Assembly (NCBI GenBank): GCA_035278895.1
Contig: DATEIO010000055.1
Coordinates: 375 to 64,374, forward strand
Direction: 5' to 3'
DNA from: Thermoanaerobaculia bacterium
Lineage (GTDB): Bacteria > Acidobacteriota > Thermoanaerobaculia > Multivoradales > UBA5704
DNA length: 64,000 nucleotides
The notes under the pieces were generated by a model. The model was not told where the DNA came from. It did not search any database and saw only the letters and a program-made list of their open reading frames with translations. Both the position numbers and the translations under genes were made by a program. Positions 1,941 through 64,000 of this stretch are shown here, in pieces. Position 1 is the first letter of the stretch. The number at the start of each line of letters is the position of its first letter.

Positions 1941-1949
1941 GGGAAAAGC

Positions 1950-2930: not shown

Positions 2931-2946
2931 GCGAGCTTCAGCATCT

Positions 2947-2979: not shown

Positions 2980-3012
2980 AAATGTACCACATCCTCTTTT
3001 CCGCCCTTCCGT

Positions 3013-4371: not shown

Positions 4372-4376
4372 TTCGA

Positions 4377-4383
4377 CCTCCTC
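4377..4383 (-). promoter_or_regulatory. Shine-Dalgarno GAGGAGG of the MFS transporter gene
   Basis: 5-nt spacer to ATG 4371. Confidence 0.7.
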
Positions 4384-4486
4384 GAGTCTCTGAATCGCAG
4401 GGCCCACCCGAGGGGCGGAATCGGGCGCGAACCGGCACGCCAGGGGGCAAGCGGCGGTTGGGGCCGCAGGTAGAGCTTCTCCTCGA

Positions 4487-7400
4487 TCATTCGTAGTCTC
4501 CTCTCAAGGCTCGATCAGGGGCCGGGTGGCCGGAAGGGGAAAGCGCCAGGATTCCGGTCAGGAACAGATTCTGGAGCGTCTCGATCTCGCGGCTTCGCGC
4601 GGAGGGCCGGATTTCGCCGCAGGTGCGGCCGAGGGATGCCTCGACGGCATCGCGCTCGGTCTCGCTCAGTTGCCGCAGCGAATGATCGGTCAGCGCGCGG
4701 CGGGTCTCAGGGTTCCAGAGCCGCACCAGCGGGCTCAAGCGGACAGTCAGGGAGGCGAAGTCGGCCGGCTCGGGATGGAAATCCAGGCGGCCCAGCTCTG
4801 CGGCCACGTCGCGGCGGAAGGCTTCGCGATTGTAGCGCCGGGCGATGAGACCGGCGCCGCGGCGGCACTCTTCCCCGGCGCTGGCCGGATCCGTCACGGT
4901 ATTCCGGTAGATGGCTTCGGCGACGGGCAGGTAGGCCTCGGGATCGCCGAATCCCATGGCCTCGCTTTCGTGGACGTGAATCCCACACCCCTCGGGCAGG
5001 AGGTAGCGGAGATTGCCGATCCCGTTGGTGTAGATCGGGCAGCCATGGAAGACGGATTCCAGGGCGTAGAGCCCGAAGGATTCCGGGATCGTGTTGTAGA
5101 AGACTCCAAACCGGCAGGCCCGCAGGATCTCGAACAGGGCCGACTGCCTGAGGTGGGGAATCGGGATGAGGAGGTCGGCGGCCGTCAGCCCCAGGGCCGT
5201 GAGGTTGTCCCGAAAGAACCTCATTTCCAAGGGATATTGCTCCGCCGGCAGGTCGAGGGCGGCCTGGATCCGCCGGAACATGTGATCCGCGACGAAGACG
5301 CGGAACCTCCGCCCCAGGCCGCGCTCCTGGGCGAGCTGGTTGAGCCGCAGGAGGATGCTGTAGAGGGCCGATTCGTCCACTTTCTCCGCGGTCACGGCGT
5401 GGCCGAGGACGTCGCCCCGGTCGATGGCCTCCCGGGCGTGCCGGGGGAGGTCGCCGCTCCCCTCCTCGAGGGCCCCTGCGGGCTCCTCCAGGCAGGGCAG
5501 CGCCAGAGTCAGATGCGAGACGATTCCGAAGGCCCGGGAATCGAGGATCCGCTGGCGCCGCCAGTCCGGCAGGGCGAGCAGCGACTGCACGACGTCGCCC
5601 GTGTAGGCCGAGTTGCCCCAGTAGCGATCGATGGCGGGGTTGCCGGCCCACTCGCCCGGAGAGCCGGCAAAGCCGTGGAAGAACACGACGTTTTTCTGCG
5701 CTCCCCTGCGGCGCACGGGGCTCACCTGGAGGCCGAAATCGCAGTGCACCGTCAGGCCCGCCGGCGGAAGAGAACGGCTCTGAAACCTCCGTTCCACGGC
5801 CCGCAGAGGGACCAGGACGTCCGCGGAGGAGGGGTTGCGCCCTTCGGCATAGACTCCGTGGACCTGGTATCCGAGATCCTCGAGAGTCTCGTTCAAACAG
5901 GAGTTGACCACGGCGCAGGAGCTGCCGAACGGGCGGACCGGAGGATGGAAATAGAAGACCTGCGCCCTTTTTTCCTTCGGATGAGGCGTCCTCCGGGTCC
6001 GGGGGCGAAGCTCCGGGGTCTCCTCCGGAGGGGCGGCCAGGGCCAGACGGCGCACGGTCGCGCCGAGGCCTGAGAGAGTGGGCCTGGCGAACAGCGCTCC
6101 GGGGTCGATGCGTCCCCAGCGCGCGGTGATCCGGGAGAGCAGGCGGACGGCGGAGACCGAGTCACCGCCGAGGGCGAAGAAGTCTTCGGCGAGCGTTGCG
6201 GGACGCCGGCCCAGGACCTCTTGCCAGAGCGCCGCCAGCTCCGTCTCGATCTCGCCCCATTCTCCGCGAACCGCCACTGGAGGAGGGGGCAGGGCGGCAG
6301 AGCCCAGGGCTCCGTCCGCCGTCCGAGGGAGCTCCTCGAGACCCACGAAGGCGTCCGGGATCAGAGCCTCGGGGAGCCGGGCCCGCAGATCGCGCCGCAG
6401 CTCCTCTTCGTTCGGCGGGTGGCCGTCTTCCGGAACGATCCACGCGACAAGGCGCCCCGGCTCTTCTCCTGGCGCCACCCAGGCCACCGCGGCCTGGCGC
6501 ACGGCCGGATGTTGTTCCAGGGCCCTTTCGACGAAGCGTGGATGGGCTCCGTAGCCCAGCGCTCCGGTGAGATCGGCGAGCCAGGGCTCGGGCACGTTCC
6601 AGGCTCCGACGCGGAGCGCGGGCCGCTCCTCGTTCCAGGCCTCCTCCCCGGCAGCCAGCCGGGTGAGCAGATCGCGGTAGGACTCGATCAGGCTGGGGAT
6701 GAAGTCCTCGGGAAAGACCTCCTCGACGGCCTGGCTGACCAGCTCCAGGCCGCCCTGGCCGTTCAGGGTGGCGACCCAGAGGATCAGCGCCTGCGGCAGG
6801 GAGAGCATCAGCTCGATTTCCCGGAAATCGAGCCGGGGAGGCGCTTCTCCGGGAGCTGGAGCGGCCGGCCGCGGCGAGGTCTCCTCTGCGGGCGCCGCCG
6901 GGTGGCTGTACTCGACGACGCTGTTGAAGTGGATCGGCAGGAGGGCCCGCGCACCCATCCGGTGCCGCCGGTTGTACTCGCGCCACACCTGGTGGCCGGA
7001 GAATTCCTGATGGTCGAGATCCGCTGCGATCCGCGCCTGGAGCCGCTGGGCGCGTTCCTGAAAAGCGCCGGGTCCATCTTGAGCCGCCAGCAGGTGGATG
7101 ATCGTGAAGCTGCCCAGGGAGCGGGCCATGTGCGGGTGGAGGTCCGGCCGGTAAGACCCGCCGCAGCCGATGCTGAAATCCGGGCGCGCGCTCCACAGGC
7201 GCAGCACCTCGGCGAACGCTGCGGTCAGGGCGCTCGTGGGCGACAGCCCGGCGTTGCGGGCCCGTTGGCTGAAGCCCTCCCAGCTCTGGCGGTCCAGGAC
7301 CTCCGGCTGGCGTTTGACGATCCGCGGCACCGTGTCCGGGGTGAGCGGCCGGGCCAGAGGCAAGACCGGCGGCGGTGGCAGCGAAGGCAGCTGGGACAGC

Positions 7401-8131
7401 CAGTAAGCGCGGGAACGGGAGTAGGCCGCGGTCTCCCGGAATGCGGCAAGCGCCCGCGCGTAGTCCAGGAACGAGACCTCGAGCGGAGCCAGCTCCCGGT
7501 CCGGGAAGTTGAGGAGCTGCGACAGCTCCTCGAACAGCCTGGCGCGGGCGGTGCCGTCGATCAGGATCGCCTCGAAGCGCCAGTGCAGCCGGATCCGGCC
7601 GCCGTTGATCTGGTGGAGCACGGCTTCGAAAAGCGGCCAGCGGTCGAGCGGGCGTTTCGCGTAGCGCATCTCGTGGCGCACGCTGCGCAGGCGCTCCTCG
7701 GTCCAGGCGCTGCTCCTGCCGCTCAGGTCCTCCGCCTCGACCTCAAAGGGCGGCACCTCGGGGAGGAGCTGCAGGTGGCCATCCGGCAGGACGATGGTGC
7801 GCAGCATCTCGTGGCGCCCGATGACCGTGCGCAACGCCCGGGTCAGGCGGTGGGCGAACGGCCAGAGAGAGCCCTGGTACTCCTGCTCGATGTAGATGTT
7901 GGCCCCGCACCCCCCCACGTCGAAGACGCCGCTGCGGCCGAGCCAGAGAACCTCCTGGAAGTCGGTCGGGGGAACCGGGGCGAAGCGGTCCGGAGGCCTC
8001 TCGGGGAGGCGTGGACGCTCGGGGAGGAGCGGAGGCGGCGCGGCCGGACCGCCGCGATCCTTGATTCTGCGCATCAGCAGATCGCGCTGTTCGGGCGACA
8101 GGGCGGCGATGCGCCGCTCGAAGTCATTCAT
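4487..8131 (-). CDS. atypical terminal NRPS-like protein: degenerate Cy-family domain, A C-terminal-subdomain remnant, PCP, GT4-like glycosyltransferase, unassigned tail (1214 aa)
   Basis: ATG 8131 overlaps the stop of the upstream NRPS (ATGAATGA). The N-terminus has an 'LSPEQRDLL' helix. The Cy-family domain spans aa 50-495 (6647..7984: 'PPTDFQEVLWLGR', 'GGCGANIYIEQE', 'RHEMLRTIVLPDG'), but DxxxxDxxS reads 'EAILIDGTA' and (G/A)DFT reads 'GSFT'. The A-subdomain remnant spans aa ~525-612 ('HPAVRQAAVAWV..GRLVAWIVP..LPEALIPDAFVGLEELPRTADGAL'), with no A1-A8 and no A10 Lys. The PCP has 'FFALGGDSVSAV' (Ser codon 6158..6160). The GT-B/GT4-like domain spans aa 722-1115 with 'ESFGLYALE' (E-x7-E). A ~100-aa tail is unassigned. 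Confidence 0.85.
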   Translation of the reverse strand: MNDFERRIAALSPEQRDLLMRRIKDRGGPAAPPPLLPERPRLPERPPDRFAPVPPTDFQEVLWLGRSGVFDVGGCGANIYIEQEYQGSLWPFAHRLTRALRTVIGRHEMLRTIVLPDGHLQLLPEVPPFEVEAEDLSGRSSAWTEERLRSVRHEMRYAKRPLDRWPLFEAVLHQINGGRIRLHWRFEAILIDGTARARLFEELSQLLNFPDRELAPLEVSFLDYARALAAFRETAAYSRSRAYWLSQLPSLPPPPVLPLARPLTPDTVPRIVKRQPEVLDRQSWEGFSQRARNAGLSPTSALTAAFAEVLRLWSARPDFSIGCGGSYRPDLHPHMARSLGSFTIIHLLAAQDGPGAFQERAQRLQARIAADLDHQEFSGHQVWREYNRRHRMGARALLPIHFNSVVEYSHPAAPAEETSPRPAAPAPGEAPPRLDFREIELMLSLPQALILWVATLNGQGGLELVSQAVEEVFPEDFIPSLIESYRDLLTRLAAGEEAWNEERPALRVGAWNVPEPWLADLTGALGYGAHPRFVERALEQHPAVRQAAVAWVAPGEEPGRLVAWIVPEDGHPPNEEELRRDLRARLPEALIPDAFVGLEELPRTADGALGSAALPPPPVAVRGEWGEIETELAALWQEVLGRRPATLAEDFFALGGDSVSAVRLLSRITARWGRIDPGALFARPTLSGLGATVRRLALAAPPEETPELRPRTRRTPHPKEKRAQVFYFHPPVRPFGSSCAVVNSCLNETLEDLGYQVHGVYAEGRNPSSADVLVPLRAVERRFQSRSLPPAGLTVHCDFGLQVSPVRRRGAQKNVVFFHGFAGSPGEWAGNPAIDRYWGNSAYTGDVVQSLLALPDWRRQRILDSRAFGIVSHLTLALPCLEEPAGALEEGSGDLPRHAREAIDRGDVLGHAVTAEKVDESALYSILLRLNQLAQERGLGRRFRVFVADHMFRRIQAALDLPAEQYPLEMRFFRDNLTALGLTAADLLIPIPHLRQSALFEILRACRFGVFYNTIPESFGLYALESVFHGCPIYTNGIGNLRYLLPEGCGIHVHESEAMGFGDPEAYLPVAEAIYRNTVTDPASAGEECRRGAGLIARRYNREAFRRDVAAELGRLDFHPEPADFASLTVRLSPLVRLWNPETRRALTDHSLRQLSETERDAVEASLGRTCGEIRPSARSREIETLQNLFLTGILALSPSGHPAPDRALRGDYE
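4787..5968 (-). other. domain: GT-B fold, GT4-like glycosyltransferase fused to the PCP
   Basis: N-half Rossmann start 'QVFYFHPPVRPFGSSCAVV..LEDLGYQVHGV'. C-half 'NTIPESFGLYALESVFHGCPIYTNGIGNLRYLLPEG', containing the E-x7-E motif. Confidence 0.7.
6047..6259 (-). other. domain: peptidyl carrier protein
   Basis: 'ELAALWQEVLG..EDFFALGGDSVSAVRLLSRI'. Confidence 0.8.
6296..6559 (-). other. domain remnant: adenylation C-terminal subdomain only
   Basis: The post-A8 pattern 'ALEQHPAVRQAAVAWV..GRLVAWIVP..LRARLPEALIPDAF' is present. The A10 position reads 'LPRTADGAL', with no Lys. There is no A1-A8 core anywhere in this protein. Confidence 0.6.
6647..7984 (-). other. domain: heterocyclisation-family (Cy-like) domain with degenerate signature motifs
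   Basis: Cy-type Z1/Z2 motifs are present. 'EAILIDGTA' (7556..7573) replaces DxxxxDxxS. 'GSFT' replaces (G/A)DFT. Confidence 0.7.
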
Positions 8132-11100
8132 CGCCGCCCCCGAGGCGCGAGCCGGCCGGATCTCCCGACATCTGCTCCACTTCCTCGAGCAGCTCGGCGA
8201 GCAGGCTGGCATCGATCAGGCTGGCCCGCGCGTTGGCCACGGCGACCGCCATCTCCTCCAACGTGGAGCTGTAGAGCACGTTGAGCGGCAGCTCGATGCC
8301 GAAGGCGGAGCGGATGCGGAGGATGAGCTGCATGGCGACCAGAGAGTGGCCTCCGAGCTGGAGGAAGCGGTCGCTCCGGCCGACACGCTCGGCCCCCAGC
8401 ACCTCCTGCCACAGAGCGGCAAGCTGGCTCTCGATCTCGGTGCGCGGAGGATCGTAGGAGTCCTCTTCGCGCCCCTGCCGGGCCCTCTCCGGATCGGGCA
8501 ACGCGCGGCGGTCGAGCTTGCCGCTGGGGGTGAGAGGCAGCGCGTCGAGCACGACGATGGCCGAGGGGACCATGGGCTCGGGCAGCCGGGTGCGCAGAAA
8601 GTCCTGCAGACCCGCAGCCAGCGAGTCGGAGGCCTTCTCTTCGTCGCGGCCCCTCGGCACGACCCAGGCGGCGAGGCGCCGGTCGGTGCCGGCCTGATAG
8701 GCGCCTGCGACGGCCTCCCGGACCTGGGAATGTTGCAGCAGCGCTCTTTCGACCTCTCCCGGCTCGATGCGGAAGCCCCGGATCTTGAGCTGCTGGTCGG
8801 CGCGCCCGACGAAGTCGAGGTCGCCGCCCGGCAGCCAGCGGCCGAGGTCGCCCGTGCGGTAGAGCCGCGCTCCGGGAGCGGTTGCGAAGGGATCGGGGAC
8901 GAACCTCTCCGCGGTGAGGTCGGGGCGCCCCCGGTAGCCTCGGGCGAGACCGGCGCCGCCCAGGTAGATCTCCCCGGGAACGGCGGTCGGAGCCGGCTGG
9001 AGCCAGGAGTCGAGCACCAGCACCCGGACTCCGTCGATCGGCGGACCGATCCGCGGCCTGCCGCCCTCGGCTCCGGGGCTCGAGACGTCCCCCGCGGTCG
9101 CGCAGACCGTGGCTTCGGTCGGTCCGTAGGCGTCGATCACCCGCCGGCCGCCCGGCCCGCCGCTCCAGCGCCGGACCAGCTCGGACGGACAGGCTTCCCC
9201 GGCGACGACGAGCACTCGCAAATCGGGCAGCCCGGCCTCGGGCAGCACGGCGAGCACCGAGGGGGGAAGCGTCAGATGGGTGATCCTCCGCTCGGCCAGG
9301 AGGTCGATCAGCCCGGGGCCGGGCAGGAGCCGGGAAGGAGAGGAGAGGTGCAGCTCCGCGCCTCCGAGCAGCGCCATCAGAATCTCCGAGACCGAGGCGT
9401 CGAAGCTCAGAGAGGCGAACTGGAGCACGCGGTCGCCTGGGCGGACGTCGAACAGCCTCGTCTGGGCGGCCGCGAGATTCCCGAGCCCGCCGTGAGGCAC
9501 GACGACGCCTTTCGGCGCACCGGTGGAGCCCGAGGTGTAGATCAGGTACGCGGAGCTTTCCGCATCGGCGGTCTCCGGGAGGGGAGAGTCTTCCTGAGCA
9601 TCGATCAGCCAGACGTCGCCGTCCAGGCGGAGGATCGGGATCTGGTCGACCTGGCTCGGGAGGCTCTCGAGGAGAAGCTCGGTGGTCAGCAGCACCGCGG
9701 CCTGGGAATCCTTGAGGAGAAGAAGGAGGCGTTCGAGCGGATAGGCCGGATCGAGCGCCACGTAGGCGCCTCCCGCCTTCCAGATGGCGAGTAGCCCGAT
9801 GAGAAGGTCCGGAGAGCGGTCGAGACAGACGGCCACCGGGACCTCGGGACCGACGCCCCACAGCCGCAGGGCCCGCGCGACCTGGTTGGCGCGGCGGTCG
9901 AGCTCGCCATAGGTGAGGCGGGAATCGTCCCCGGCCACGGCGACCTCTTCCGGGATCGTGCGGGCCCTCTCCTCGAAGAGCCGGGCGGCGTTGACGCGCG
10001 GGGAGGCCGGACCGCCGTCGCTCCAGACGGTGAGGACCTGCCGTTGCTCTTCTTCGGACAGCAGGGAAGACTCGTGGTGCGGCCTCTCGGGATGGGCGGC
10101 GAGAGCGGCCAGGGCCTGCGCGTAGCACGCGCCGACCGCGCGGACCTGCTCGGGAGAGACCTCGGCATCGGAGTAGTTCAGGCGCAGGGAGATCCACGCG
10201 CCTTCGATGTCGAGCGTGCAGTTGGTGCCGAGAGGGAAGTTGGTCTCTTCGTAGCCGTAGTTGGACAGCGACTGCAGGCCACCGGCTTTGCGGACCTCCT
10301 GATACACGTGAAACTGAGTGACTCCGAAGGCGGTCTCGAACATCTCCTGGCCGCCGGCCGCGCTCTGGATCTCACCCAGGGGCAGGCGGCGGTGAGCCAG
10401 CATGTCGCGTTCGAGCTCGAAGGCCTTCCGGGCGAGCTCGCTCCAGGTCTCTCCGCCCAGGCGCAGCCGGAAGGGCACGGTGTTGAGGAAAAGCCCGAGC
10501 GCCTCGGTCCCTCCCTCCTGCTCGGGCCGGCCGTGGACCACCAGCCCGGTGACCACGTCGGGCTCGCCGCAGACGCGCGCAACGACGGCGAGGTGCGCGG
10601 CGAACAGCAGGCTCTTCAGGGGGACGCCCGTCTGCCGCGCTGCCTGCCGGAGGGCTTCCGTGGCCTCCGAATCGACCGGCACGAAATGATCGTTCGCCCG
10701 CGGGGCGGCCGGGCGTACGTGCGGCCAGCGTGGAAGGCGGTTGGGCGGGGCCTCGGCGAGAAGCCGCTGCCAGAAGGCGCGGGTCTCGGCCGAGGCGAGC
10801 GCTTCCCTCTCGAGCCGCACGGAGTCGCGGAAGGCAGCGGCCGGAGGCGGCTCCTCGGGCAGCTCTCGTCCCTCGGCCATCGCCATGTAGCTGTGGAACA
10901 GCTCGGTGCGCAGGGTGGCCGCGCTCCAGCCGTCGAGCACGGAGTGATGGAAGCTCAGGGTGTGCTGGAAGACGTCGTCCGCGAGCCGGTGGACGTGGAA
11001 GCGCAGCAGCGGGGGGCACGACCAGTCGAAGTCGCGGTAGCGCTCGGCCTCGAGCCAGGCCGCCACGGTCCGCTCGCGCTCGGGCTCGGACAGGCCGCGC

Positions 11101-14100
11101 AGGTCTTCGATCGCCAGCGGAGCCGTCACGTGGCGGTACACGAGCTGGAGCGGCTCGCTGGTCTCGCGGAGCTCGAAAGCGGTCCGCAGGGCGGGGTGGC
11201 GGGCCACGGCCCGGGCGAGCGAGCGGTGGAAGGCGTCCTCGTCGAACGGGCCGCGCAGGCGCTCGCTCACGATGTCGTGGTAGACGGCGGTGCCGGGGTT
11301 GAGCTGGGTGTGAAACAACATGCCGGCCTGGGTGCGGGCGAGCGGATAGGCATCTTCCACTGCGCCGGGCAGGAGGCGGCGGTCGGCTTCGGAGATCAGC
11401 TCGAACGGCTCCAGGGGCACCAGGCCCGTCTCGGGCTCTCCGGTGCTCAGCACCCGCGCCAGCTCGCCCAGGATCTGGTGCTGGAAGATCTGCTGGAGCG
11501 TCATCGACAAACCCAGGTCGCGCGCCCGCGCCAGCACGCGGATGCTCAGGATCGAGTCGCCCCCGAGAGCGAAGAAATTGTCCAGGCTGCCGACCTGCGC
11601 AACGCCCAGGACCTCGGACCAGACCTGGGCCAGAATCCTCTCGGCCGGGGTCTCCGGCGCGACGTGCTCGACCTCGGCGCGTGCCGTGGCCGGATCGGGA
11701 TCGGGGAGGGCCTTGCGATCGAGCTTGCCGTTCGGAGTGAGCGGGAGACCGTCGAGAGGCACGAAGGCCGGCGGGATCATGTAGGACGGGAGGCGCTGCT
11801 CCAGGTGGGCCCGCAGCTCCGCAATCGTGGGAATCCGGGCCTCGCGGGAGACGAACCAGGCGACCAGCCGGCCGTGGTCGCCGCCGCGTCCCCGGGACAA
11901 TACGACGGCTTCGCGGACGTCCGGATGGCTCATGAGAGCGGCCTGAATTTCCCCGAGCTCGATGCGGAAGCCGCGGACCTTGACCTGGTCGTCGGTGCGC
12001 CCGAGGTACTCCAGCTCTCCATCCGGCCGTCGCCGGGCGAGGTCGCCCGAGCGGTACAGGCGGGCCCCGGGCTCCGGGCTGAACGGGTCGGCCACGAAGC
12101 GCTCGGCCGTCAGCTCCGGCCGGTTCAGATAGCCTCGCGCCACGCCGGGCCCGCCGACGTGGATCTCGCCGGGAACCAGGAAGGGGACCGGCTCGAGACG
12201 GCGGTCCAGCACATGGACCTGGAGATCCTCGATGGGAAGGCCGATGCGGCTGCCTCCGCCGAGGTCGGCGTGCGACATGGGCCGGTAGGTCACGTGCACC
12301 GTGGTCTCGGTGATGCCGTACATGTTGACCAGGAGAGGCTCGCGGTCGCCGTGACGCTCGAACCAGGAGGCCAGAATGGAGGGCTCGAGAGCCTCACCGC
12401 CGAAGACGACGGTGCGCAGAGAGAGGCGGCGAGGACGCTCGGCGTCGGCGGCGGAGAGCTGGCGGAAGGCGGAAGGCGTCTGGTTGAGCACGGTGACCCG
12501 CTCGGATTCCAGCAGGTCGAGAAACGCTTCCGGGGACCGGCTGATCCAGTAGGGGACGATGACGAGGCGCCCGCCCCAGGCCAGGGCCCCCCAGATCTCC
12601 CAGACCGAGAAGTCGAAGGCGTGAGAGTGGAACAGGGTCCAGACGTCGCCGGGGCCGAAGGCGAAACGGTCCTGCGTGGCCGCCAGCAGGCGCGAGACGT
12701 TGGCGTGGGTGACCACGACTCCCTTGGGGAGGCCGGTGGAGCCGGAGGTGTAGATGACGTAGGCGGCATGGCCGGGGTCGACCGCTGCGTCCTGGAACGG
12801 CACCGGGCTCTCCGCATCGAGGCCCGGGAGCCCGGCGTCGAGGAGCAGGCGGGGGAGCCCCGGAATCTCGGGCAGCCGCATCTCGAGGCTGGAATGGGTC
12901 AGCAGGACCGCGGCCCCGGAATCGGCGAGCAGGAAGCCGAGACGCTCGCGCGGAAGATCGGGATCGAGAGGCACGTAAGCGGCACCGACCCGGAGGATCG
13001 CCAGGATGGCGGCGATCATCTCCGGAGAGCGTTCGAGGCAGAGCGCGACGCGCATCTCGAGCCCGGCCCCGAGCCGGTGGAGGCGCCAGGCGATGCGGTT
13101 GGCTTCGGCCTCGAGCTCTAAGTAGCTCCAGCGTACGCCCGCACCGGAGAGCGCCTCCGCCTGGGGAGCGCGGCGGGCGGCCGCGGCGAAGAGCTCATGA
13201 AGCGGCGCGAGCGGTCCGGGCTGGACGCCGAAGCGGTTCCATCCGCTGATCAGCTGCTGCCGCTCCGCCCCGGTCAGGAGGGGCAGCTCGGAGACCGCAA
13301 GGCCGCCCCGGCTGGCGATACCCTGGACGAGGGTCTCGAAGGAGCGTGCGAGGCGTGCGGCCGAAGACTCCTCGAAGAGGTCGGTGCGGTAGATCAGAGT
13401 CCCCGAAATCCTCTGGGGAAGCTCGTTCATCACCAGGTGCAGGTCGTATTGTGCGGCCTGGGTCTCCACGCTGAACGGAGCCGGGGAGCCCGGGGACGAG
13501 GGCTGGGTCCCGGAGAGGTTCTGGAAGGCCAGCGCCACCTGGAAGAGAGGGGTCTGCGAGAGGTCGCGGGGGAGGCTCAGATCCCGGACCAGGGATTCGA
13601 ACGGGAGCTCCTGGTGGGCTTCGGCCTGGAGGATTCGCTCGCGCACCCGCTCGAGGAGCTCCGGGAAAGGAGGGTCGCCCGCCAGATCGATCCGGATCGC
13701 CAGCATGTTGATGAAGAATCCGATCAGGGGCTCGAGCTCCCGGCGGGTGCGGCCGGCCACCGGAGTGCCGACGAGCAGGTCCTCTGCGTTTGTCGAGCGA
13801 TGGAGGAGGACGCCGAAGGCGGCCATCAGGAGCATGAACAGGGACGAGCCCCGGGAGAGGGCCAGCTCGCGAATCGCCGCGGTGGTGCCGGGGTCCAGGG
13901 TCAGCCGGACCGTGCCGCCCCGGGAGCTCTGGACGGCGGGCCGCGGCCGGTCGGAAGGCAGGGCCAGCGAGGTGGGCGCCCCCGCCAGGCACTCGCGCCA
14001 GTAGCGGAGCAGGGCCTCGAGAGTCTCCCCTTGCAGCTGGTCGCGCTGCCAGGTGGCGAAATCGGCGTACTGGATCGGCAGCTCCGGCAGGGGCGAGGGT

Positions 14101-14695
14101 TTTCCGGCGGCCAACGCGTCGTACAAGGCCGTCAGCTCCCGGACGAGAATCCCCATGGACCATGCGTCCGAAGCGATGTGATGCATGATCAGGACGAGCG
14201 CGTGGTCCTCGCCGCCGAGCCGCAGGAGAGCGCTGCGGAGGGGGAGGGAGCGGGTCAGGTCGAACGGCCGAGCCACGAGGAGGCTCCCGAGCCGCCTGGC
14301 TTCGCCGAGGCGCGCCTCGGCGGGAAGGCCGGACAGATCGGCGCACGCCATCGGCGGCTCCGGCTCCTCGATCACGATCTGCACCGGCTCGCCGCCGGCC
14401 GTGCCGAAGAGGGTGCGCAGGCTTTCGTGACGCCGCAGGAGCTCGCCGAAGGCCCTGCGCAGGATCCCGGCGTCCAGGGGGCCGGAGAGGCGCACGCCTT
14501 CGGGGAGGTTGAAGGTGAGGGCGTCAGGATCGAGCTGGTACAGGAACCAGAGGCGCTGCTGGCCGAAGGAGAGCGGGGAGGGCCCGGTGCCGGAGCGCCG
14601 GGGGATGACCGGACGCGGCGCGGTGGCCACTCCCTGTTGGCGGAGCCGCTTCTCCAGCAGGAGTTGGTACTTCGCGGAGAGCTCGAGGGCATTGG

Positions 14696-14699
<4 letters not shown>
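8124..14699 (-). CDS. NRPS, 2 modules: C-A(Thr)-PCP-C'(DCL-like)-A(Tyr-type)-PCP (2191 aa)
   Basis: GTG 14699 overlaps the upstream stop (GTGA), with an AAAGGA SD-like element 8 nt upstream. C 13260..14582 ('PLSFGQQRLWFL', 'HHIASDAWS'). A 11709..13208 (Tyr codon of YTSGSTG at 12750..12752; code DFWNVGMVHK). PCP 'GGDSILSI' (Ser 11553..11555). C' 10065..11363. A 8499..9992 (YTSGSTG Tyr codon 9537..9539; code DASTVAAVCK). PCP 'LGGHSL' (Ser 8343..8345). Acidic tail 'SLLAELLEEVEQMS'. ORF-track residues upstream of 14699 are out-of-frame overlap. Confidence 0.9.
10065..11363 (-). other. domain: second DCL-like C' domain not preceded by an E domain
   Basis: 'VEDAYPLARTQAGMLFHTQLNPGTAVYHD', 'SFHHSVLDGWS', 'YEETNFPL'. 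The upstream PCP is 'GGDSILSI'. Confidence 0.75.
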
Positions 14700-21279
<6,580 letters not shown>

Positions 21280-21283
<4 letters not shown>

Positions 21284-24200
21284 GGCAGGGTTCCTTCGTC
21301 GAGGGCCAGCTCCAGCTCCTCCTGCGAGGCGCTGGCGATCATCGCCTCCTCGATCGCGACGGCGAGCGCGGCGATGGTCGGGGCGTCGAAGAGGCTCCGC
21401 ACCCGCAGCTCGACCCCGAGGGTCCTGCCGAGGCGGGAGACGAGCTGAAGGGCGACCAGCGAGTCCCCGCCCAGCTCGAAGAAGTTGTCGTGAATGCCGA
21501 TCCGCTCGATGCCGAAGACCTCCTGCCAGACCTCGGCGATCTCTCGCTCGAGCTCGTCGGAGGGCGGGCTGTACGGGGTCGCCAGGGGCGGCCGCTCGTG
21601 GATCGACGCCGGCGCGGGCCGCCGCTCGAGAGCCTCGAGCACGCTCGCGCCGGCCTTCTGCGCCCGCCTCCAGCGCGCCGCGAAATCGCCGGCCGAGACG
21701 ACCACCTGCTCCAGGCCGCTCGCCAGGGCGCGATCGAACGCCTCGACCCCCTCGGCCGGAGAGAGGCCGCCGGTCATCTCCTCGCCGGTCAGCTCGCGGT
21801 GCCGCCGTTCGACGGCGACGGCCATGCCGGTCCCCTGCCAGCGGTCCCAGTCGAGGGCCAGGGTCGGTATGCCGGTCTCGGCCGCGTGGAGGTGGGCCCA
21901 GGCATCGAGGAAGGCGTTGGCGGCGCAGTAGCCGGTCTGGCCGGGCTGTGCGAGGAGCGCGCTGGTCGAGGAGAAGACGACGATCTGGCCGGGCGGCAGC
22001 TCCCGGCAGACCTCGCCGAGGGCGAGCGCGCCCCGGACCTTGGCCGCGAGCTCCTCCTCGAGCGCCTCGCGCGTCTGCAGGGCGAGGAGCCGCCCTCCCG
22101 GCACACCGGCGGCGTGAATCACGCCGTCGAGGCGGCCGAAGCGTTCCACGGTGCGGCGGACGGCGGCGCGCAAGGCTTCGAGGTCGGCGGCGTCCGCCGC
22201 TTCGACGGCCACTTCGGCTCCCAGGGCCCGCATCCGGCGCACCCGGTCGGCACGGAGCGCGGGATCCGAGACCGCCACGGCCGCCGGACGGGTGGCGAGC
22301 AGGAGCCCGCAGTCGGCGTCGGCCCGGCCGTCTTCGTCCTCCGGCAGGGCGGCGGCGACCTCGAAGCCGGCCCGCGCGAGCGCCTCCTTCCAGGCCTCGA
22401 GATCGATCAGCGGCGAGCCGTGGCGATAGGCGTCGGAGAACAGCCACCAGCCTTCGGCGAGCCCCCAGACCATGTCCATCCAGCGCTGGCGGCGGGTCAG
22501 CTCGATCAGGCAGAGCTCGCCGCCCGGGCGCAGCAGCCGCCTCAGGTTGCGCAGGGTCGCCTCGACGTCCGGGGTGGCGTGGACGACGTTCAGGGCGAAG
22601 AGCAGGTCGAAGCTCTCCGGCTCATAGCCCTGCTCTGCCGGATCGCGCGAGGCGTCGAGCACGCCGAAGCGCAGGAAGTCGAGCCCCGCCCGCGCCGCCT
22701 CGCGTTCGGCCTCGGTCACGAACAGGCGGCCGAGGTCGGTGAACCAGTATTCGGCTCCGCGGCCGGAGAGCACCGGAGCCACCTGCCGCGTGAGGACGCC
22801 CTGGCCGCCGCCGGCTTCGAGGACGCGGAGCGTGCGTCCCGCGGCGGCGCACCGCCCGGCGGCACGGCTCGCGATCTCCGCGGCGAGGGCGGTGTAGACC
22901 GGCGTGTGCGAGAGGCTCTCGGCGGGCTCTCCCGGCTCGCCTCCGGAGAACAGGTACTGGAGCGCCTCGCCGTCTCCCGAGAGCGCGGGCCCATAGCCGG
23001 CGGCGCACCGCTCGACCCTCTCGAAGAGGGAGCGTAGAAAGGGATGCCGCAAGGCCGCTTCGCGGGCCAGCGCCGCGGGGTCGGGAGCGCCGGCCGCGTC
23101 CACCTGGAAGACCGCGGTGTCCCCCTCCCGCCGGACCCAGCCGTCCTCGGCCAGGGTTTCGAGGAGAAAGTCGAAGAAGCGGTGGAACTTGGGGAGGAGC
23201 CGCAGATCCTCGCGCCGCAAGGGCGCACCCCGGCGGACCTCGATCCCCGCTTCGATGAGAAAGCGGAGCAGGCGGGCGGAGCAGAAGGCGTCGAGCGACT
23301 CCTGGGCTCCGGGGCGGCTCGCCAGGCCTCGCACGCCGAGCTGGTGCCGCAGCTCGATCTCCCGGGCGGCGAGATCCGCGCCGGGGGTCCCCTCCCGGCC
23401 GGGGAGGGCTTCCCGTTCCTCCTCCGGCGGCAGGCCCGTGCGCCCGAGCAGCACCACCCGCGCTCGCGCCGCCGCCAGGTGCTCGGCGATCTCCAGACCG
23501 ACCCCGCCGAGCCCGCCGGTCACCAGCCAGACGTCCCCCTCGCGCAGGGAGCTCCGCGTTGCGAGCCGCACCGGCGTGAGGTCCGGCAGCCAGCGCCCGC
23601 CGCCGCGCCAGGCGCTGAGCGGCGCGGAGATAGGAGCCGCGATCTCCGCGGCGATGCGGCCGAGCCACGATCCCCGCAGGGGAAACCCGACGTCGATGGC
23701 GCGGCAGGTGATGCCGGCGTGCTCGCGGGGCGCGACGCGGCAGAGCGCCAGGACCATGGCGCGCTCCGGGCAGGGGAGATCTCCCGGAGCCACCCTCTGG
23801 GCTCCGGAGGTCACGGCCGTGATCTCGAACGTCTCGGAGCCGCCGCGGTCTCCGAGCGCCTGGATGAGGAAAAGGAGGCTGTAGAAGCCGCGGTCCTTCT
23901 CCTGCTCCAGCCGGGCGAGCCGCTCCGGCAGGCCGTCGGCCGGCTCCAGCGGCTCGGCGCTGCCGAGGTGGAGGATCCGCGGCGGCAGGGAGCCTCTCTC
24001 CCGCGCGATCCCGGAAAGCAGGGCGTCGTAGTCTTCCCGCCGCCGCAGCCGCCCGTCGAGACGGACGGCGACCGTCTCGGCGCCGAGCCGGCGGAGGTGG
24101 TCGAGGAGGGCCTCGCCGACGCCGTCTCCGGCCTCCTCGGCCGCCGCGAGGAAGACGAGCCAGGGGCCGTGCCCGCCCTCTCCGGCCGGGGCCCACGGCT

Positions 24201-27200
24201 CGGGCTTCCAGAAGGGGGTCCAGAACCGGTCGGCCGGCGAACGCTCCTCAGGTGCCTCGCTCCTCCCCGGCTCGACCCAGTAGCGCCGGCGCTCGAAGGG
24301 GTAGGTCGGCAAGGGGATCCGGCGCCGCCGCTCGCCGTCGTGGAGGGCCTGCCAGTCGACCGGCGCCCCGGCCGCCCAGAGCTGGCCGAGCGCGGAGAGG
24401 ACCGTTTCGACGTCGTCTTCGGCGCCGTCCGGATGGCGCAGGGAGGTCACCACCGGGTGCGCCGGAGAACGGTCGGGGTGCCGCCTCGCCAGAGCCGAGA
24501 GCGTGCGGCCGGGGCCGGCTTCCAGGAGCACCGGGGCCGGCCGGTCCGCCGGGTGGCGGAGCAGGGTGGAGAGGCCGTCGGCGAAACGCACGGTGGCCCG
24601 CAGGTGGCGCGCCCAATACCCGGGGTCGGTCGCTTCGGCGTCCGTGATCCATGTCCCGGTGACGTTGGAGACCCAGGGGATGCGCGGCGGCGAGAGCCGG
24701 ACCCGGCCCACGGCAGCGGCGAAGGGAGCCACGGCCGGGTCCATCATCGCGGAGTGGAAGGCGTGCGAGGTGCGGAGCCGCCGGCCCTCGATCCCGCGGG
24801 CGGCGAGCCGTTCGAGCAGGTCCTGGATCTCCTCGCCGGGGCCCGAGACCACGCACTGGGCCGAGCCGTTGACAGCGGCCAGGGCCAGCCCCGGGCCGAG
24901 CAGCGGGGAGATCTCGGCCTCGGAGAGCGGCAGGCTCGCCATGCTCCCGGGCGGCAGGGCGGCGACGAGCCGGCCCCGCTGCGCGACCAGGGCGAGGCCG
25001 TCCTCGAAGGAGAACACGCCGGCCAGGCAGGCGGCGGTGTACTCGCCCAGGCTGTGGCCGATCATGGCTTCGGGGGAGAGGCCCCAGCTCGCCCACAGGC
25101 GGGCCAGGGCGTGCTCGACCGCGAACAGGGCCGGCTGGGCGAGCCCGGTGTTTTCCAGCTCCCCCTTGAGCAGGTCGCGCAGATCGCCGCCGAGCCACGG
25201 CAGGAGGATCTCGGCGGCACGGTCCATCTCCGCGCGGAAGACCGGCTCGGAGCGGTAGAGGCCGAGCCCCATGCCCGGATGCTGGGCCCCCTGGCCGGGG
25301 AAGAGGAAGATCACGCCCCGGCCTTCTTCGGCCCGGTCTCCTCCGGGTTTCGCGAGCGCCGCCACCGCCTCCGCCGCGTCTCTGCAGAGCACGGCGCGCC
25401 GGTGCCTGAAGGCACGGCGGCCGGTCTGCAGCGTCCAGGCGGCGTCGGCCAGAGCCGTCTCCGGCCTCTCCTCGAGGAAGCGGCCCAGGAGGGCGGAGGA
25501 CGCCTCGAGAGCGGACGGAGTCCGGGCGGAAAGCACGAGGAGGTTCCAGGGGCGGCGCGGCGGGGTGCCGGGCTCGGCAGGCGGCGGCTCCTCCAGGACC
25601 ATGTGGGCGTTGGTGCCGCCGATCCCGAACGAGCTGACGCCGGCCCGGCGAGGACCGTCCCCGCTCTTCCACTCGGCGAGCCGGTCGTTGACGTAGAACG
25701 GGCTCGCGGCGAAGTCGATCTTCGGGTTCGGCGTTGTGAAATGCAGGCTGGGCGGGATCTGCCCGTGCTGGAGCGCCTGGGCGGTCTTGATCAGCCCCGC
25801 GACGCCCGCCGCGGCGTCCAGGTGTCCCAGATTGGCCTTCATCGAGCCGATGGCGCAGAAGCCGCGGTCGGCCGTGCCGGTCCGGAAGGCCTGGGTCAGA
25901 GCCGCCACCTCGATGGGATCGCCCAGGGGCGTGCCCGTGCCGTGCGCCTCGACGTAGCGGACCGTGCGCGGGTCGACGCCCCCTTCGGCGAGGGCCGCGG
26001 TGATGACCTGCGCCTGTCCCTCCACGCTGGGCGCGGTGTAGCCGACCTTGAGCGATCCGTCGTTGTTCACCGCCGAGCCGAGGATCACGGCGTGGATGGT
26101 GTCGCCGTCGGCCAGCGCGTCGGTGAGCCGCTTGAGCAGCACCACGCCGGCCCCGCTCCCCCCCACGGTGCCCTGGGCCTGCGCATCGAAGGCCCGGCAG
26201 TGGCCGTCCGGAGAGAGGATTCCTCCCTCCTGGTAGAGGTAGCCGGTGCGCAGAGGCCAGGAGATCGCCGCGCCTCCGGCGAGGGCCATGTCGCAATCCC
26301 CCGCGATCAGGCTCCGGCAGGCCAGGTGGGCCGCCACCAGCGACGAGGAGCAGGCGGTCTGGACGGCCAGGCTCGGCCCCCGGAGGTTCAGCTTGTAGGA
26401 AACCGTGGTCGGCAGATGGTCCTTGTCGTTCGCGATGTCGAGCTTGTAGGCGCCGGCCGAGCGCAGCGCCTCGGGATTCCTGTACAGGTGAATCAGGTAG
26501 CCGCTCCTGCGCACCCCGGCGTAGACACCGATCCGGCCGGGGAAGGCCGCGGGGTCGTAGCCGCTCGCCTCGATCGCCTCCCACGCGCATTCCAGGAAGA
26601 GGCGGTGCTGGGGGTCGGTGATCTCCGCGTCCCGGGGGGTGAAACCGAAGAAGTCGGCGTCGAAGAGGTCGACGTCCGCGAGGGGAGCGCTCGCCCGGAC
26701 GTAGCGGGGGTGCCGGAGCGTCTCGGGGTCGACCCCGGCTTCCAGAAGCTCCTCCTCCGAAAGCCGGACGATCGACTCGACGCCTGCGCAAAGGTTTCGC
26801 CACAGATCCTCGACGCCCGCCGCGCCGGGGAAGCGGCCGGACATGCCGATGATGGCGATCCGGGAGTCCGTTCCGGCGGCCCGGGTTCCGCGGGCCGCGA
26901 GGGGAGCCGAAGCGTCCTCCGCTCCCCGCGTCAGAGAGCGGGCCAGCGCCTCGACGGTCGGGTGGCGGAACAGATCCACCAGGGGAATCTCCCGGTCGAG
27001 GGAGGCCCGCAGCCTCTCCTGGAGCCGGAGGAGGAGCAGGGAGTGCCCGCCGAGATCGAAGAAGTTGTCGTGGCGCCCCACCTGGGCGAGGCCGAGGACG
27101 TCGCGCCAGGCGGCGGCGACCTGCTGCTCCATCGCGGTCTGTGGAGGCGTCGCGGGTCCGTCACCGGCGCCCGGACCCGGCTCGGAGCCCAGACGGCTCA

Positions 27201-30200
27201 GGGCCCGCCGGTCGATCTTGCCGTTCGCAGAGAGGGGCAGGGCCGGGAGGAAATGCCAGGCCGCCGGCACCATGGGCTCCGGCAGGCGCTCGCGCAAGGC
27301 CTGGCGCAGCTCGGGAGCTCCGGCGGTCGCTTCCTCCGCCAGGGCCACGAACGCCGACAGCCGGCGGTGGACCCCCTGGCCGAGAGCCAGAACCGCCGCC
27401 TCGCGCACCGCGGGCAGCTCGCACAGCGCGGTCTCGATCTCGCCCAGCTCGATGCGGAACCCGCGGACCTTCACCTGATGGTCGAGCCGGCCGAGGAACT
27501 CCAGGGAGCCGTCGGGCCGCCAGCGGGCCAGGTCTCCGGTCCTGTAGAGGCGGGACCCGGCGGGCGCGTACGGGTCGGGCAGGAAGCTCGCGGCGGTCAG
27601 GTCCGGCCGGCCGAGATAGCCGCGGGCGAGGCCGCTGCCGCCCAGATAGAGCCCTCCCGGCGCACCCAGGGGGAGAAGCCGCAGATCGGCGTCGAGCACC
27701 AGGGCGCGGGTGCCCGGGAGGGGGCGCCCGATGCGGGGATCGCCCTCGCCGTCGACCGCGCACCCGGTCGAATACGTCGTGTCTTCGGTCGGTCCGTAGA
27801 GGTTGAAGATCCGCTCGGCGCCGGAGCGGGCGTAGACCTCCCGCACGAGCGACCCCTTGAGCGGCTCGCCGGCGAGATTGACGGTCCGCACGGACGCGGG
27901 GAACCTGCCGCTCCGGACCAGCTCGGCGATGGCTGAAGGCACCGTGTTGACGAGAGTCACCTCGCCCGCCGCCGGAAGCCCGGGCAGCGCGAGAGCGTTG
28001 TCCGCCAGGATCACGGTGCCGCCGCAGGAGAGCGGCACGAAGATCTCGAAGACCGACAGGTCGAAGCAGACCGAGGTCGCCGCCAGCACGCCCGCGAGGT
28101 CTCGCGCCGGAAACGCCTGCTGCGCCCAGGCGATCCGGTTCACGGCGTTGCGGTGCGGGATCATCACCCCCTTGGGGCGGCCGGTGGACCCGGAGGTGTA
28201 GATGACGTAGGCGAGCTGGCCGGGATCGGCGAAAGCCGGCGCGTCCGGGGCCGGTGGGGCGTCCTGCTCTCCGTCCACCGTGAAGACCCGCGGAGCGAGG
28301 TCCGCCACGCGCCCGAGCAGCGACTGCTGCGTGAGAAGGAGGGCGGCTCCCGAATCCCGCAGCATGTACGACAGCCGCTCGGCAGGGTAGGCGGGATCGA
28401 GAGGCACGTAGGCGCCTCCCGCCGCGAGCGTTGCGAGGAGGGCCGCGATCAAATCGGGCGACCTCTCCAGGCAGATCCCGACCCGGACCTCGGGCCCTGC
28501 TCCCAGCCGCCGCAACTGCCGCGCGAGCCGCGCCGCGCGGTCGTTAAGCTCGCGATAGGTCCACCGCTCCCGCCCATGGACGATGGCGACGGCCTCCGGG
28601 GTGCGCTCCGCCTGCCCGGCGAAGAGCCGGTCGAGAGAGGCGGCGGGGGGCTTTGCCGCCGTGTCGTTCCACTCGGTCAGGATCTGGTGTCTTTCGGACG
28701 CGCCGAGCAGCGGCAGGTCGCCCAGCCGCCCGCCCGGCTCCGCGGCGGCGCCGGCCAGCAGCCTGCCGAGCTGGGCGAGCAGCCGCTCCGCCGTGGCCCG
28801 GTCGAAAAGGTCGGCGTTGTACTCGAGACCGCCGGCGAGCCCACCCGGCTGCTCCACGAGGGTGAGCAGCAGCTCGAACTTGGTGGTGCCGCTCTCGGCG
28901 GGCAGCGCGGTCAGGGTCAGACCGGGGAGCGTGAGGTCCTCCCGGGGAGCGTTCTGGAGCACCAGGACGGCCTGGAAGAGGGGGCTGCGGGCGAGGTCGC
29001 GCTCCGGCCGGATCTCTTCCACCAGCTTTTCGAACGGCAGGTCCTGGAGCGCGTAGGCCTCGAGAGCGGTGTCGCGGGTCCGCGCGACGAGCTCCCGGAA
29101 GGCCGGCTCGCCGGCGAGGCCCCCCCGCAGCGCGAGCATGTTGATGAAGACGCCGATCAGGCCTTCGGTCTCCGCGCGGCTGCGTCCCGCGATGGGGGTG
29201 CCGGTCACCAGGTCGTCCTGCCCGCTGTGGCGGTGGAGGAGGGCCTGGAATCCGGCGAGAGCCACCATGAACAGGGTGGCGCCCTCCCGGCGGGCCAGGG
29301 CGCGCAGGGCGGCCGTCTCCTCCTTCCCGAGCCGGAATGGAGAGACGCCGCCGCGGAAGGTCTGCACGGGGGGGCGCGGGCGGTCCGTCGGCAGCTCGAG
29401 CGCGGCGGGGGCGCCCGCCAGCCGGGTCCGCCAGGCGGCGATCAGCCCGTCGAGCACGTCTCCCGTGAGCCAGCTCCGCTGCCAGGCGGCGAAGTCGGCG
29501 TACTGGATCGCAAGCTCCGGCAGGGGAGACGGCTCCCGCCGGGAAAAAGCGCGGTACAAGGCGCCCAGCTCGCGCACGAGCACACCCATCGACCAGCCGT
29601 CGCTGGCGATGTGGTGGATCGTCAGGAGTAGCACGTGCTCCTGCTCACCCAGGGAGAGCAGCCGGATCCGGAACAGGGGGCCGCGCGAGAGATCGAAAGG
29701 CCGGTCCCTCTCGCGCTGCAGAAAGCGCGCGCGCTCTTCGTCGCGCGCGGAGCGGGGGAGGCCGGCCAGGTCGATCACCGGCAGCGGGACCGGAGCGGCC
29801 GGCGCGATCCTCTGCACCGCCGCTTCGCCACGGCCGTGGAACGTCGTGCGCAGCGCCTCGTGGCGTCTCACGATCTCGTCGACGCTGGCGCGGAGGACGC
29901 CGGCCTCGAGACGGCCCTCGAGCCGGCACGCGGTCGCGATGTTGTAAGCCGGGCTGCCGGCGTCGAGCTGATAGAGGAACCACAGCCGCTGCTGGGCGAA
30001 CGACAGGGGGAGGTCGCCGTCGCGGCCGGCGGCCTGGATGGGGGGAAGGGCGGGCCCGGCTCCCGACTGGATCGCGGCCCGCACGGCGCCGGCGAACCGT
30101 TCCAGCGCCGGCTCCGCGAACAGCGTCTGCAGCGGGACGTCCACCTTGAGCAGGCTGCGGACCCGGGAGATCACCTGGACGGCGAGCAGCGAGTGGCCGC

Positions 30201-41085: not shown

Positions 41086-64000
<22,915 letters not shown>

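Follow-up and report, generated by a model that had tools for sequence, protein, structure and literature searches.

A large, probably functional orphan hybrid of non-ribosomal peptide synthetase and polyketide synthase from a Thermoanaerobaculia bacterium

The subject of this study is a stretch of 64,000 nucleotides (nt) from a Thermoanaerobaculia bacterium of the Acidobacteriota (GenBank assembly GCA_035278895.1, contig DATEIO010000055.1, positions 375 to 64,374 of the forward strand), which is called the window in the following. Between nt 4487 and 64000, the minus strand of the window is tiled without gaps by six translationally coupled genes, designated G1 to G6 from right to left, which encode a hybrid of non-ribosomal peptide synthetase (NRPS) and polyketide synthase (PKS) modules. 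In all likelihood, the locus is a genuine and probably functional orphan assembly line of the cis-acyltransferase (cis-AT) type, which comprises the modules n to n+15 and whose start lies beyond the window. All of the catalytic units are of classes that have been described before, and for most of the arrangements there is a direct precedent. The logic of chain release and the possible formation of a dehydro-aspartate (dehydro-Asp) residue are the sole unusual points.

The frame of G1 (48755-64000; at least 5082 amino acids, aa) is open to the edge of the window and the N-terminus of the protein lies beyond it. G1 is followed by G2 (41085-48755; 2557 aa), which has a TTG start codon, by G3 (21283-41085; 6601 aa), which spans 19.8 kb, and by G4 (14699-21283; 2195 aa), G5 (8127-14699; 2191 aa) and G6 (4490-8212; 1241 aa), all of them on the minus strand. 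For G6, translation more likely starts at the ATG at 8131, giving a protein of 1214 aa; the N-terminus read from this codon, MNDFERRIAALSPEQRDLL..., is similar to the N-termini of G4 and G5. At the gene junctions, the start codons are located 4-8 nt inside the preceding gene, all overlaps are clean and the pattern is that of translational coupling. Moreover, neither a stop codon nor a frameshift was found in the 59.5 kb of DNA with a GC content of 73%.

The domain inventory was established by Pfam searches with 1-kb protein slices, by motif scans and by sequence searches against the PDB. In total, the genes encode 12 adenylation (A) domains, 14 domains of the condensation (C) family, two epimerisation (E) domains, three pairs of ketosynthase (KS) and AT domains and 16 complete carrier (T) domains plus one cut T domain, which corresponds to at least 16 modules in the window. 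The E-values of the domains range from 1e-40 to 1e-120 and thus exclude chance. The C-family domains are distributed over G1 (three), G2 (two), G3 (four), G4 (two), G5 (two) and G6 (one), and they include one heterocyclisation (Cy) domain, one non-catalytic interface-type domain and two domains of the dehydrating type. Twelve C-A-T modules carry the core motifs HHxxxDG, A3, A8, A10 and GGxS. The same counts of A, C-family, E, KS-AT and carrier domains had been given by an initial annotation of the window, which had also described six minus-strand genes, a 6601-aa protein encoded by 19.8 kb and a rightmost open reading frame (ORF) that begins inside a carrier helix and stays open at nt 64000. 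The present analysis agrees with it on each of these points, and adds to its tally the Cy, interface-type and dehydrating types among the C-family domains as well as the A-domain remnant and the glycosyltransferase-fold domain of G6.

The order of the domains in G1 is T(part)-KS-AT-T-C-A(Thr-like)-T-C-A(Gly)-T-KS-AT-T-C-TauD. The partial T domain (63896-64000, minus strand) consists of the C-terminal helices of a seventeenth carrier at the edge of the window, and the frame of G1 runs off the window, which places the loading module and the earlier modules beyond nt 64000. G2 consists of an interface-type C domain lacking the HH motif, followed by A(Asp)-T, a dehydrating-type C domain and A(Thr)-T-E. 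G3 has the order C(HMLLLDG)-A(Dab-like)-T-C-A(Asp-like)-T-E-C-A(Pro)-T-C-A(Ala)-T-KS-AT-KR(N-part)-cMT-KR(rest)-T, where Dab stands for 2,4-diaminobutyrate, KR for ketoreductase and cMT for C-methyltransferase. G4 has the order C-A-T-C-A-T, G5 the order C-A(Thr)-T, dehydrating-type C, A(Tyr)-T, and G6 consists of a Cy domain, a remnant of an A domain, a T domain and a domain resembling glycosyltransferases (GTs) of the GT-B fold.

The proteins end in a T, E or TauD domain and the next protein opens with a C-family domain. Furthermore, both E domains, whose best PDB matches are the E domains of PvdL, bacitracin synthase, TycA and GrsA (E-values of 1e-70 to 1e-117), precede C domains of the 'YPLxPMQxGMLFHS' type, which are DCL-like, and one of these pairings spans the junction of G2 and G3. 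Together with the overlaps of 4-8 nt, the ends and starts of the proteins and the pairing of E with DCL-like domains support a collinear reading, so that the uninterrupted co-linear line described in the initial annotation holds.

The collinearity also bears on the question of whether the line could be chimeric, with several NRPS/PKS loci having been joined during assembly via repeated module sequence. This scenario has to be considered for a probable metagenome assembly with repetitive NRPS modules, in which 43 repeat families were listed; one of these families, D1, has 12 copies and provides an independent recount of the A domains. However, the repeats between the modules do not exceed 79% identity and a length of 300 nt, which makes repeat collapse or misassembly unlikely, as they are too divergent to be mis-joined. 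The clean overlaps and the pairing of E and DCL-like domains across the junction of G2 and G3 also speak against a chimera. Moreover, an independent 2.7-kb NCBI contig (L005) with 92.6% DNA identity confirms the junction of G1 and G2 including the same annotated TTG start, and related loci confirm the order of G5, G6, the GT-like sequence and the major facilitator superfamily (MFS) transporter gene. A chimera is thus scarcely credible.

All three PKS modules, which are encoded on the minus strand, appear to use malonate. The KS motifs TACS, HGxGT and NxGH are present in all three modules, and each of the three in-cis AT domains carries the malonyl-type motif HAFH. In the first module, KS1 (62720-63847) has an intact Cys/His/His triad, AT1 (61301-62278) contains GYSLG (61943-61957) in place of GHSxG while the Ser and HAFH are kept, and the T domain (60791-61003) follows without any reductive domain. 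The second module, KS2-AT2(HAFH)-T (51296-54388), also lacks KR, dehydratase (DH) and enoylreductase (ER) domains. The third module (21361-26865) follows the Ala module and has the order KS-AT(HAFH)-psiKR/KR(beta1-beta2)-cMT-KR-ACP, with an acyl carrier protein (ACP) at its end. Its cMT domain is CurJ-like (PDB 5thy, E-value of 1e-45) and is inserted after the beta1-GxGxxG-beta2 part of the KR domain (KR-cMT-KR stretch 21646-24246), in which the K, S, Y and N residues are kept. That a KR split by a methyltransferase would be a novelty was rejected: in a HMMER search of 1.8 billion representatives of 50% clusters, the entire KR-cMT-KR stretch was matched in one piece by dozens of proteins with a length of about 1900 aa. 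Judged by these matches, KS-AT-cMT-KR-ACP with the cMT embedded in the KR is a common layout. Together with the preceding Ala module, the third PKS module is predicted to form a 4-amino-3-hydroxy-2-methylpentanoyl unit. Presumably, the same unit is made for bleomycin by a BlmVIII-type module that follows an Ala-activating NRPS. In terms of domain layout, both systems have an Ala-type A code followed by KS-AT(malonyl)-cMT-KR-ACP, whereas the remainder of the present line is unrelated to bleomycin.

The substrates of the A domains were predicted from their Stachelhaus codes. To read out the codes, the A domains were aligned to a segment of GrsA, and the landmark motifs were each checked by eye. 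In G1, A1 (DFWNVGFVWK) is presumably Thr-like and A2 (DILQLGLVWK) is taken to be specific for Gly. For the four A domains of G3, we assume a Dab-like substrate for A1 (DIWEITADDK), an Asp-like substrate for A2 (DSTKAGHVGK), Pro for A3 (DVQFIAHVVK) and Ala for A4 (DLFNNALTYK). Likewise, A1 (DFWNVGMVHK) and A2 (DASTVAAVCK) of G5 are taken to activate Thr and Tyr, respectively. The substrates of G4 A1 (DMVQFGLVYK) and G4 A2 (DALDLGSVTK) are not predictable. The two codes of G2 have been described: DLTKVGHVGK, the code of G2 A1 (46020-47465, minus strand), stands for Asp, which is present as hydroxy-Asp (OH-Asp) in tistrellabactin (PMC10391617), and for Asp generally (PMC12283262), and DFWNIGMVHK, the code of G2 A2, stands for Thr (PMC12283262).

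The Asp module of G2 is part of a unit that extends over the junction of G1 and G2. On the minus strand, a C domain with the catalytic motif HHIGFDG (49949-51232; G1 residues 4257-4684) is followed by a TauD/TfdA Fe(II)/2-oxoglutarate dioxygenase domain, which forms the C-terminus of G1 (48803-49684; residues 4773-5066) and contains the iron triad H-x-E...H (HNE at 49418-49441 and AHGR at 48842-48859). G2 opens with an interface-type C-like domain, G2_C1 (47526-48731, minus strand), which has PALCADA in place of HHxxxDG and precedes the A domain for Asp. Thus, the line contains two features of an IBH_Asp unit, a TauD domain fused C-terminally after a C domain and a non-catalytic C-like domain before an Asp-specific A domain. 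By analogy, C-TauD followed by the HH-less C domain and A(Asp) is the known arrangement for beta-hydroxy-Asp; reportedly, the unit of IBH_Asp and interface domain of Reitz et al. 2019 has this arrangement. Indeed, the architecture of the potashchelin synthetase PtcB has been given as 'FAAL-ACP-C-TauD-C-A_Asp-PCP' (PMC7100376). PtcB and the cyanochelin proteins CcsJK/CcsL share with G1 and G2 the order T-C-TauD, then HH-less C-A(Asp), and the beta-hydroxy-Asp units of the siderophores cupriachelin, potashchelin and cyanochelin likewise have a C-TauD end followed by a C-like domain without HHxxxDG and A(Asp). C-TauD proteins of about 840 aa that stand alone occur widely. For the TauD region, the best match is a partial protein encoded in a metagenome-assembled genome (MAG) of the Thermoanaerobaculia, with 94% identity. 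In two further C-TauD loci, L089 and L090, the next protein opens with a HH-less C domain, the best match of which is G2_C1. L089 (10001-15720) is derived from a PKS-NRPS cluster of a cultured Bacillus (Bacillus mycoides, LDHM01000062.1) and L090 (5852-14426) from a JGI contig.

The similarity to these systems raises the possibility that the line is the synthetase of a siderophore, a non-ribosomal peptide (NRP) metallophore. Besides the layout of C-TauD and interface-A(Asp) as in potashchelin and cyanochelin, the use of IBH_Asp in the metallophore rule of antiSMASH and the weak match of the MFS transporter to EntS are in line with this possibility. However, in contrast to the siderophore units, the putative IBH_Asp unit of the window is embedded within a hybrid line of 16 modules, where it is preceded by a PKS module and followed by a dehydrating-type C domain. 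Only one OH-Asp is predicted among the 16 modules. Neither catechol nor hydroxamate units nor a second OH-Asp or OH-His unit, that is, no other chelating units, were seen in the window, and the window contains the MFS pump as the only candidate transporter of this kind, without a TonB-dependent receptor or uptake genes. Moreover, NRPs that contain beta-OH-Asp without being metallophores are false positives of such rules (eLife paper). A siderophore is therefore an improbable product of the assembly line.

The dehydrating-type C domains, both of which are encoded on the minus strand, are found directly after the Asp module in G2 (G2_C2; 44355-45650) and directly after the Thr module in G5 (G5_C2; 10035-11357). 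In the PDB searches, the best matches of G2_C2 are McyA (8jbr, E-value of 4e-109) and AmbE (7r9x, 4e-56), and those of G5_C2 are the same domains of McyA (8jbr, 4e-117) and AmbE (7r9x, 6e-64), with ordinary C domains far below. The two domains are 48% identical to each other and each is about 25% identical to LCL-type domains; HHxxxDG is kept in both of them (HHAILDG and HHSVLDG). It is less likely that the domains are dual E/C domains, as the scores of PvdL and other C domains are far lower than those of McyA and AmbE. Dehydrating C domains, also called CmodAA, dehydrate a beta-hydroxylated donor residue ahead of condensation and, in AmbE, a TauD-type hydroxylation is followed by dehydration by a CmodAA-type C domain (PMC10880069). 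Like the C domain of McyA, C2 of AmbE and C2/C3 of AlbB, G2_C2 and G5_C2 are of this sequence type and are positioned after a predicted beta-hydroxy residue. Thus, dehydrobutyrine is probably formed from Thr via G5_C2 and, more speculatively, dehydro-Asp would be formed via G2_C2. The substrates described for such domains do not include a beta-hydroxy-Asp donor, and dehydroaspartate is not mentioned in the review of dehydrating C domains (PMC10880069). The succession of TauD-modified Asp and a dehydrating C domain did not recur in L089 and L090, the two loci examined for comparison.

The last protein, G6, has an unusual composition. Its N-terminal Cy domain (6713-8023, minus strand) yields only a weak match to the Pfam family 'Condensation' and carries ExxxxD (EAILID) in place of DxxxxD. 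The idea that it might be an inactive domain of the X-like or interface C type was rejected by the PDB search, in which the Cy domain of EpoB (5t7z, E-value of 4.5e-52) as well as BmdB, HMWP2 and PchE were matched with E-values in the range of 1e-21 to 1e-52. The following A-domain remnant (6293-6538, minus strand) comprises only the C-terminal subdomain; about 400 aa of the A core are gone in comparison with the related loci L001 and L087, and the Lys of A10 is replaced (TADGALGS). Neither DxxxxD nor an A domain activating Cys, Ser or Thr, which together characterise a Cy module, is thus found in G6. The nearest relatives have a full-length but dead A domain at this position (P-loop SDADGEG, A10 GT), and the relative L001 (2499-5840) combines a Cy domain that has DxxxxD with an A domain lacking the P-loop. 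This series looks like a stepwise decay of the terminal A domain, with its Cy and T neighbours being retained. The last carrier domain (6056-6241, minus strand) contains LGGDSV.

In frame with this T domain, G6 continues into a domain with a putative GT-B fold (4490-5965, minus strand), which is GT4-like and has an EX7E motif (5054-5086). The 520 C-terminal aa have no match in Pfam or NCBIfam, including Glycos_transf_1, and the sequence matches in the PDB only reach E-values of about 0.5. Among 5.8 billion proteins, 22 homologues were found, and an AlphaFold2 model built from their alignment has a pLDDT of 89.6 and a pTM of 0.88. The top Foldseek matches of the model (E-values of 1e-8 to 1e-10) are sucrose-phosphate and glycogen synthases, MshA and BshA, which we take to be retaining GT-B enzymes of GT4 and related families. 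The glutamates of EX7E are invariant in the family alignment. The domain thus resembles the GT4-type enzymes in its two-Rossmann GT-B fold and in EX7E, whereas the identity to them is only 10-16% and Pfam and NCBIfam matches are absent. Given the fold of the model, the idea that the 520 aa represent a cryptic thioesterase (TE), a reductase (R) or a terminal C domain was rejected.

Of the 22 homologues, all but one stand alone and have a length of about 340-505 aa; the remaining one has 776 aa and contains a CHAD domain. In all five members examined for context, the gene adjoins NRPS/PKS genes of Acidobacteriota (L001, 5831-7321; L002, 12245-13717; L003, 6230-7726; L004, 10079-11545; L087, 10001-11512), and the neighbours often include a short-chain dehydrogenase/reductase (SDR) or a carbamoyltransferase. 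A fusion to an NRPS carrier occurs only in the window, while in the closest relatives the GT-like protein is encoded by a separate gene that has an ATGA overlap with the Cy-A*-T gene, where A* denotes the defective A domain. In the acidobacterial locus L002, a gene for KS-AT-T-aminotransferase-C (5213-11302) is followed by genes for an SDR and the GT-like protein. As judged from its domains, KS-AT-T-aminotransferase is a beta-amino-forming PKS module, in contrast to the unreduced beta-keto modules of the window. The end of G6 can also be compared with the yersiniabactin synthetase HMWP1 (Cy-methyltransferase-peptidyl carrier protein-TE), which likewise has a terminal Cy-T without a functional A domain and is loaded in trans. 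In contrast to HMWP1, the window lacks a Cys-activating A domain and a TE, the motif of the Cy domain is ExxxxD, part of a relic A domain is left, and a domain with a GT fold takes the usual place of the TE.

The related loci L001, L086 and L087 share the order of the end of the line, which consists of dehydrating C-A-T, Cy-A*-T, the GT-like gene, a gene for a CmlA-like hydroxylase and an MFS pump gene. In this end cassette, the GT-like proteins are about 60% identical and the Cy-T parts about 38-40% identical to those of the window. The gene for the CmlA-like diiron beta-hydroxylase, located between the GT-like and MFS genes (L086, 7693-9339; L087, 11534-13180; L001, 7370-9016), is absent from the window, where the MFS gene directly follows G6. 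No release domain was found within 10 kb downstream in L001, L086 and L087. Since these loci share the TE-less end, the missing terminal TE is a conserved feature of the cluster family and not an effect of the window edge. An MbtH-like gene or a GxSxG hydrolase was also not found in any frame of the window. It is conceivable, although rather doubtful, that the TE-less cassette stands for an undescribed mode of termination or tailoring, in which the GT-like enzyme would act on or release the carrier-bound chain, and that the product would in addition contain 2,3-dehydro-aspartate, or its decarboxylation product, made by the TauD/interface/Asp unit and the McyA-type C domain.

Several points weigh against a functional assembly line that can be read as proposed. 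No TE, R or terminal C domain for release was found in the window, and the loading module is missing because the frame of G1 runs off the edge. In G6, the Cy domain has ExxxxD and both the A core and the A10 Lys are lost, AT1 has GYSLG instead of the canonical GHSxG, and in the first C domain of G3, which precedes the Dab-like module, the catalytic second His is replaced by Met (HMLLLDG, 40636-40656, minus strand). The substrate calls are weak or unknown for 5 of the 12 A domains and most of the assignments are presumptive matches to published codes. Moreover, an exact 43-mer (nt 63941-63983) is absent from the metagenome contig collection, and exact matches to the G4 and MFS products were not found in the collections searched. 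The line is known from its sequence only.

The degenerate sites of G6, AT1 and the first C domain of G3, the lack of a TE and the absence of the CmlA-like hydroxylase gene of the relatives would also be compatible with a decaying or silent relic, that is, with an unproductive line, a vestigial last module and an accidental GT fusion. However, no stop or frameshift interrupts the 59.5 kb and the other catalytic motifs are all intact. The cassette of Cy-A*-T and GT with a dead A domain is also kept in relatives that are only about 60% (GT) and 38-40% (Cy-T) identical, which argues for selection on a role that is independent of the A domain. In addition, the junction of G1 and G2 is preserved in the contig with 92.6% DNA identity. 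Thus, we regard a relic as unlikely and favour a probably functional line.

The nearest sequences to the window are unannotated MAG fragments of Thermoanaerobaculia (Acidobacteriota), which are 92.6% identical at the nucleotide level over 2.7 kb and otherwise at most 60% identical at the aa level. In the searched species-representative genomes, all relatives of G6 belong to MAGs of Thermoanaerobaculia/Acidobacteriota with at most 60% identity. Judged by these relatives, the host is most likely an uncultured soil bacterium of the Thermoanaerobaculia. The closest syntenic loci share 45-60% aa identity with the last three genes and are themselves unannotated, and a syntenic full-length counterpart was not found. 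The best KS relative, L006, shows 66% identity, has a different module order and is not syntenic. In the plasmid collection PLSDB, the coverage did not exceed 6%, with an identity of about 72%, and in the literature neither an acidobacterial product with this logic nor an NRPS-PKS product of Thermoanaerobaculia was found. Units resembling the amino-hydroxy-methyl acid of bleomycin, the McyA C domain of microcystin and the TauD unit of siderophores could indicate an already characterised pathway that went unrecognised. However, the best matches are unnamed MAG proteins, the syntenic loci are as distant and unannotated as stated above, and PLSDB and the literature gave no counterpart, so that this explanation is very improbable. 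The initial annotation had likewise not recognised a characterised pathway, and the relatives, PLSDB and the literature agree with it; this is a well-supported negative that does not extend to MIBiG, and not proof. Large orphan NRPS/PKS clusters of uncultured soil Acidobacteriota are known from soil metagenome surveys, and the present line resembles them in its high GC content, its very large multimodular hybrid genes and in being known from sequence only.

A working model can be derived from the observed identities and order of the domains, the active-site motifs and the conservation of the end cassette, from which the substrates, the dehydrations, the trans-loading, the glycosylation and the release are inferred. 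An upstream carrier-bound chain would first be extended by malonate with the beta-keto group kept, then by a Thr-like residue and Gly, and by a second malonate, the beta-keto group of which would be kept as well. Carrier-bound Asp would next be hydroxylated at the beta-carbon by the TauD domain of G1, which would be docked via the interface-type C domain of G2. The McyA/AmbE-type C domain may then dehydrate the hydroxy-Asp while adding Thr, which would subsequently be epimerised. G3 would add a Dab-like residue, an Asp-like residue that is epimerised, Pro and Ala, and the Ala would be converted to the 4-amino-3-hydroxy-2-methylpentanoyl unit by malonate extension, C-methylation and ketoreduction. 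G4 would contribute two residues of a type that is not predicted. Next, G5 would incorporate Thr, which the second dehydrating C domain would probably convert to dehydrobutyrine, and Tyr. The Cy-T part of G6, which has no working A domain, would require loading in trans and would form an azoline. Finally, the fused GT4-like domain probably glycosylates the chain either on the line or after release, and the MFS pump would export the product.

The MFS efflux transporter (3013-4407, minus strand) is Mef/EntS-like and is a probable exporter; in L087, where the gene for the CmlA-like hydroxylase comes first, an MFS protein with 44% identity is likewise encoded downstream of the cassette. Further to the left, the minus strand carries genes for a GDP-L-fucose synthase, Fcl (1950-2990; 499.6 bits against a cutoff of 500), an S-adenosylmethionine-dependent methyltransferase (1143-1940) and a polytopic membrane protein (about 1-1140), which runs off the left edge. 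The latter two resemble envelope polysaccharide genes, and fcl is absent from the loci of the relatives. Fcl may supply a sugar for the GT domain or may serve envelope polysaccharide synthesis. Two short plus-strand ORFs of the left flank have no Pfam match. The GC content of the window is 67-75%, with a value of 0.67 at the left end (1-6000, including the GT-like part of G6) and of 0.71-0.755 in the NRPS/PKS body. Antisense ORFs of up to 1729 aa are present on the plus strand opposite the NRPS/PKS genes (for instance 23044-27936, 42438-47627 and 34471-38013); such long plus-strand ORFs are probably the usual artefact of high-GC DNA.

As an object class, large orphan NRPS-PKS hybrids are routinely met in soil metagenomes, and the line is a good target for genome mining rather than a surprise. 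The enzymological interest lies in the TE-less end cassette of Cy-T and the GT4-like domain and in the fact that a unit for the beta-hydroxylation of Asp is paired with a dehydrating C domain. If it is indeed formed, 2,3-dehydro-aspartate would be a residue that has not been described for NRPs. The loci L089 and L090 offer an experimentally tractable model of the C-TauD/interface unit. The predicted product would combine D-residues, dehydro residues, a beta-keto unit, a bleomycin-like amino-hydroxy-methyl acid, an azoline and a sugar. Soil Acidobacteriota are abundant and largely uncultured, and it would be reasonable to seek synthetic or heterologous access to a near-complete, frameshift-free line of 16 modules from this group.

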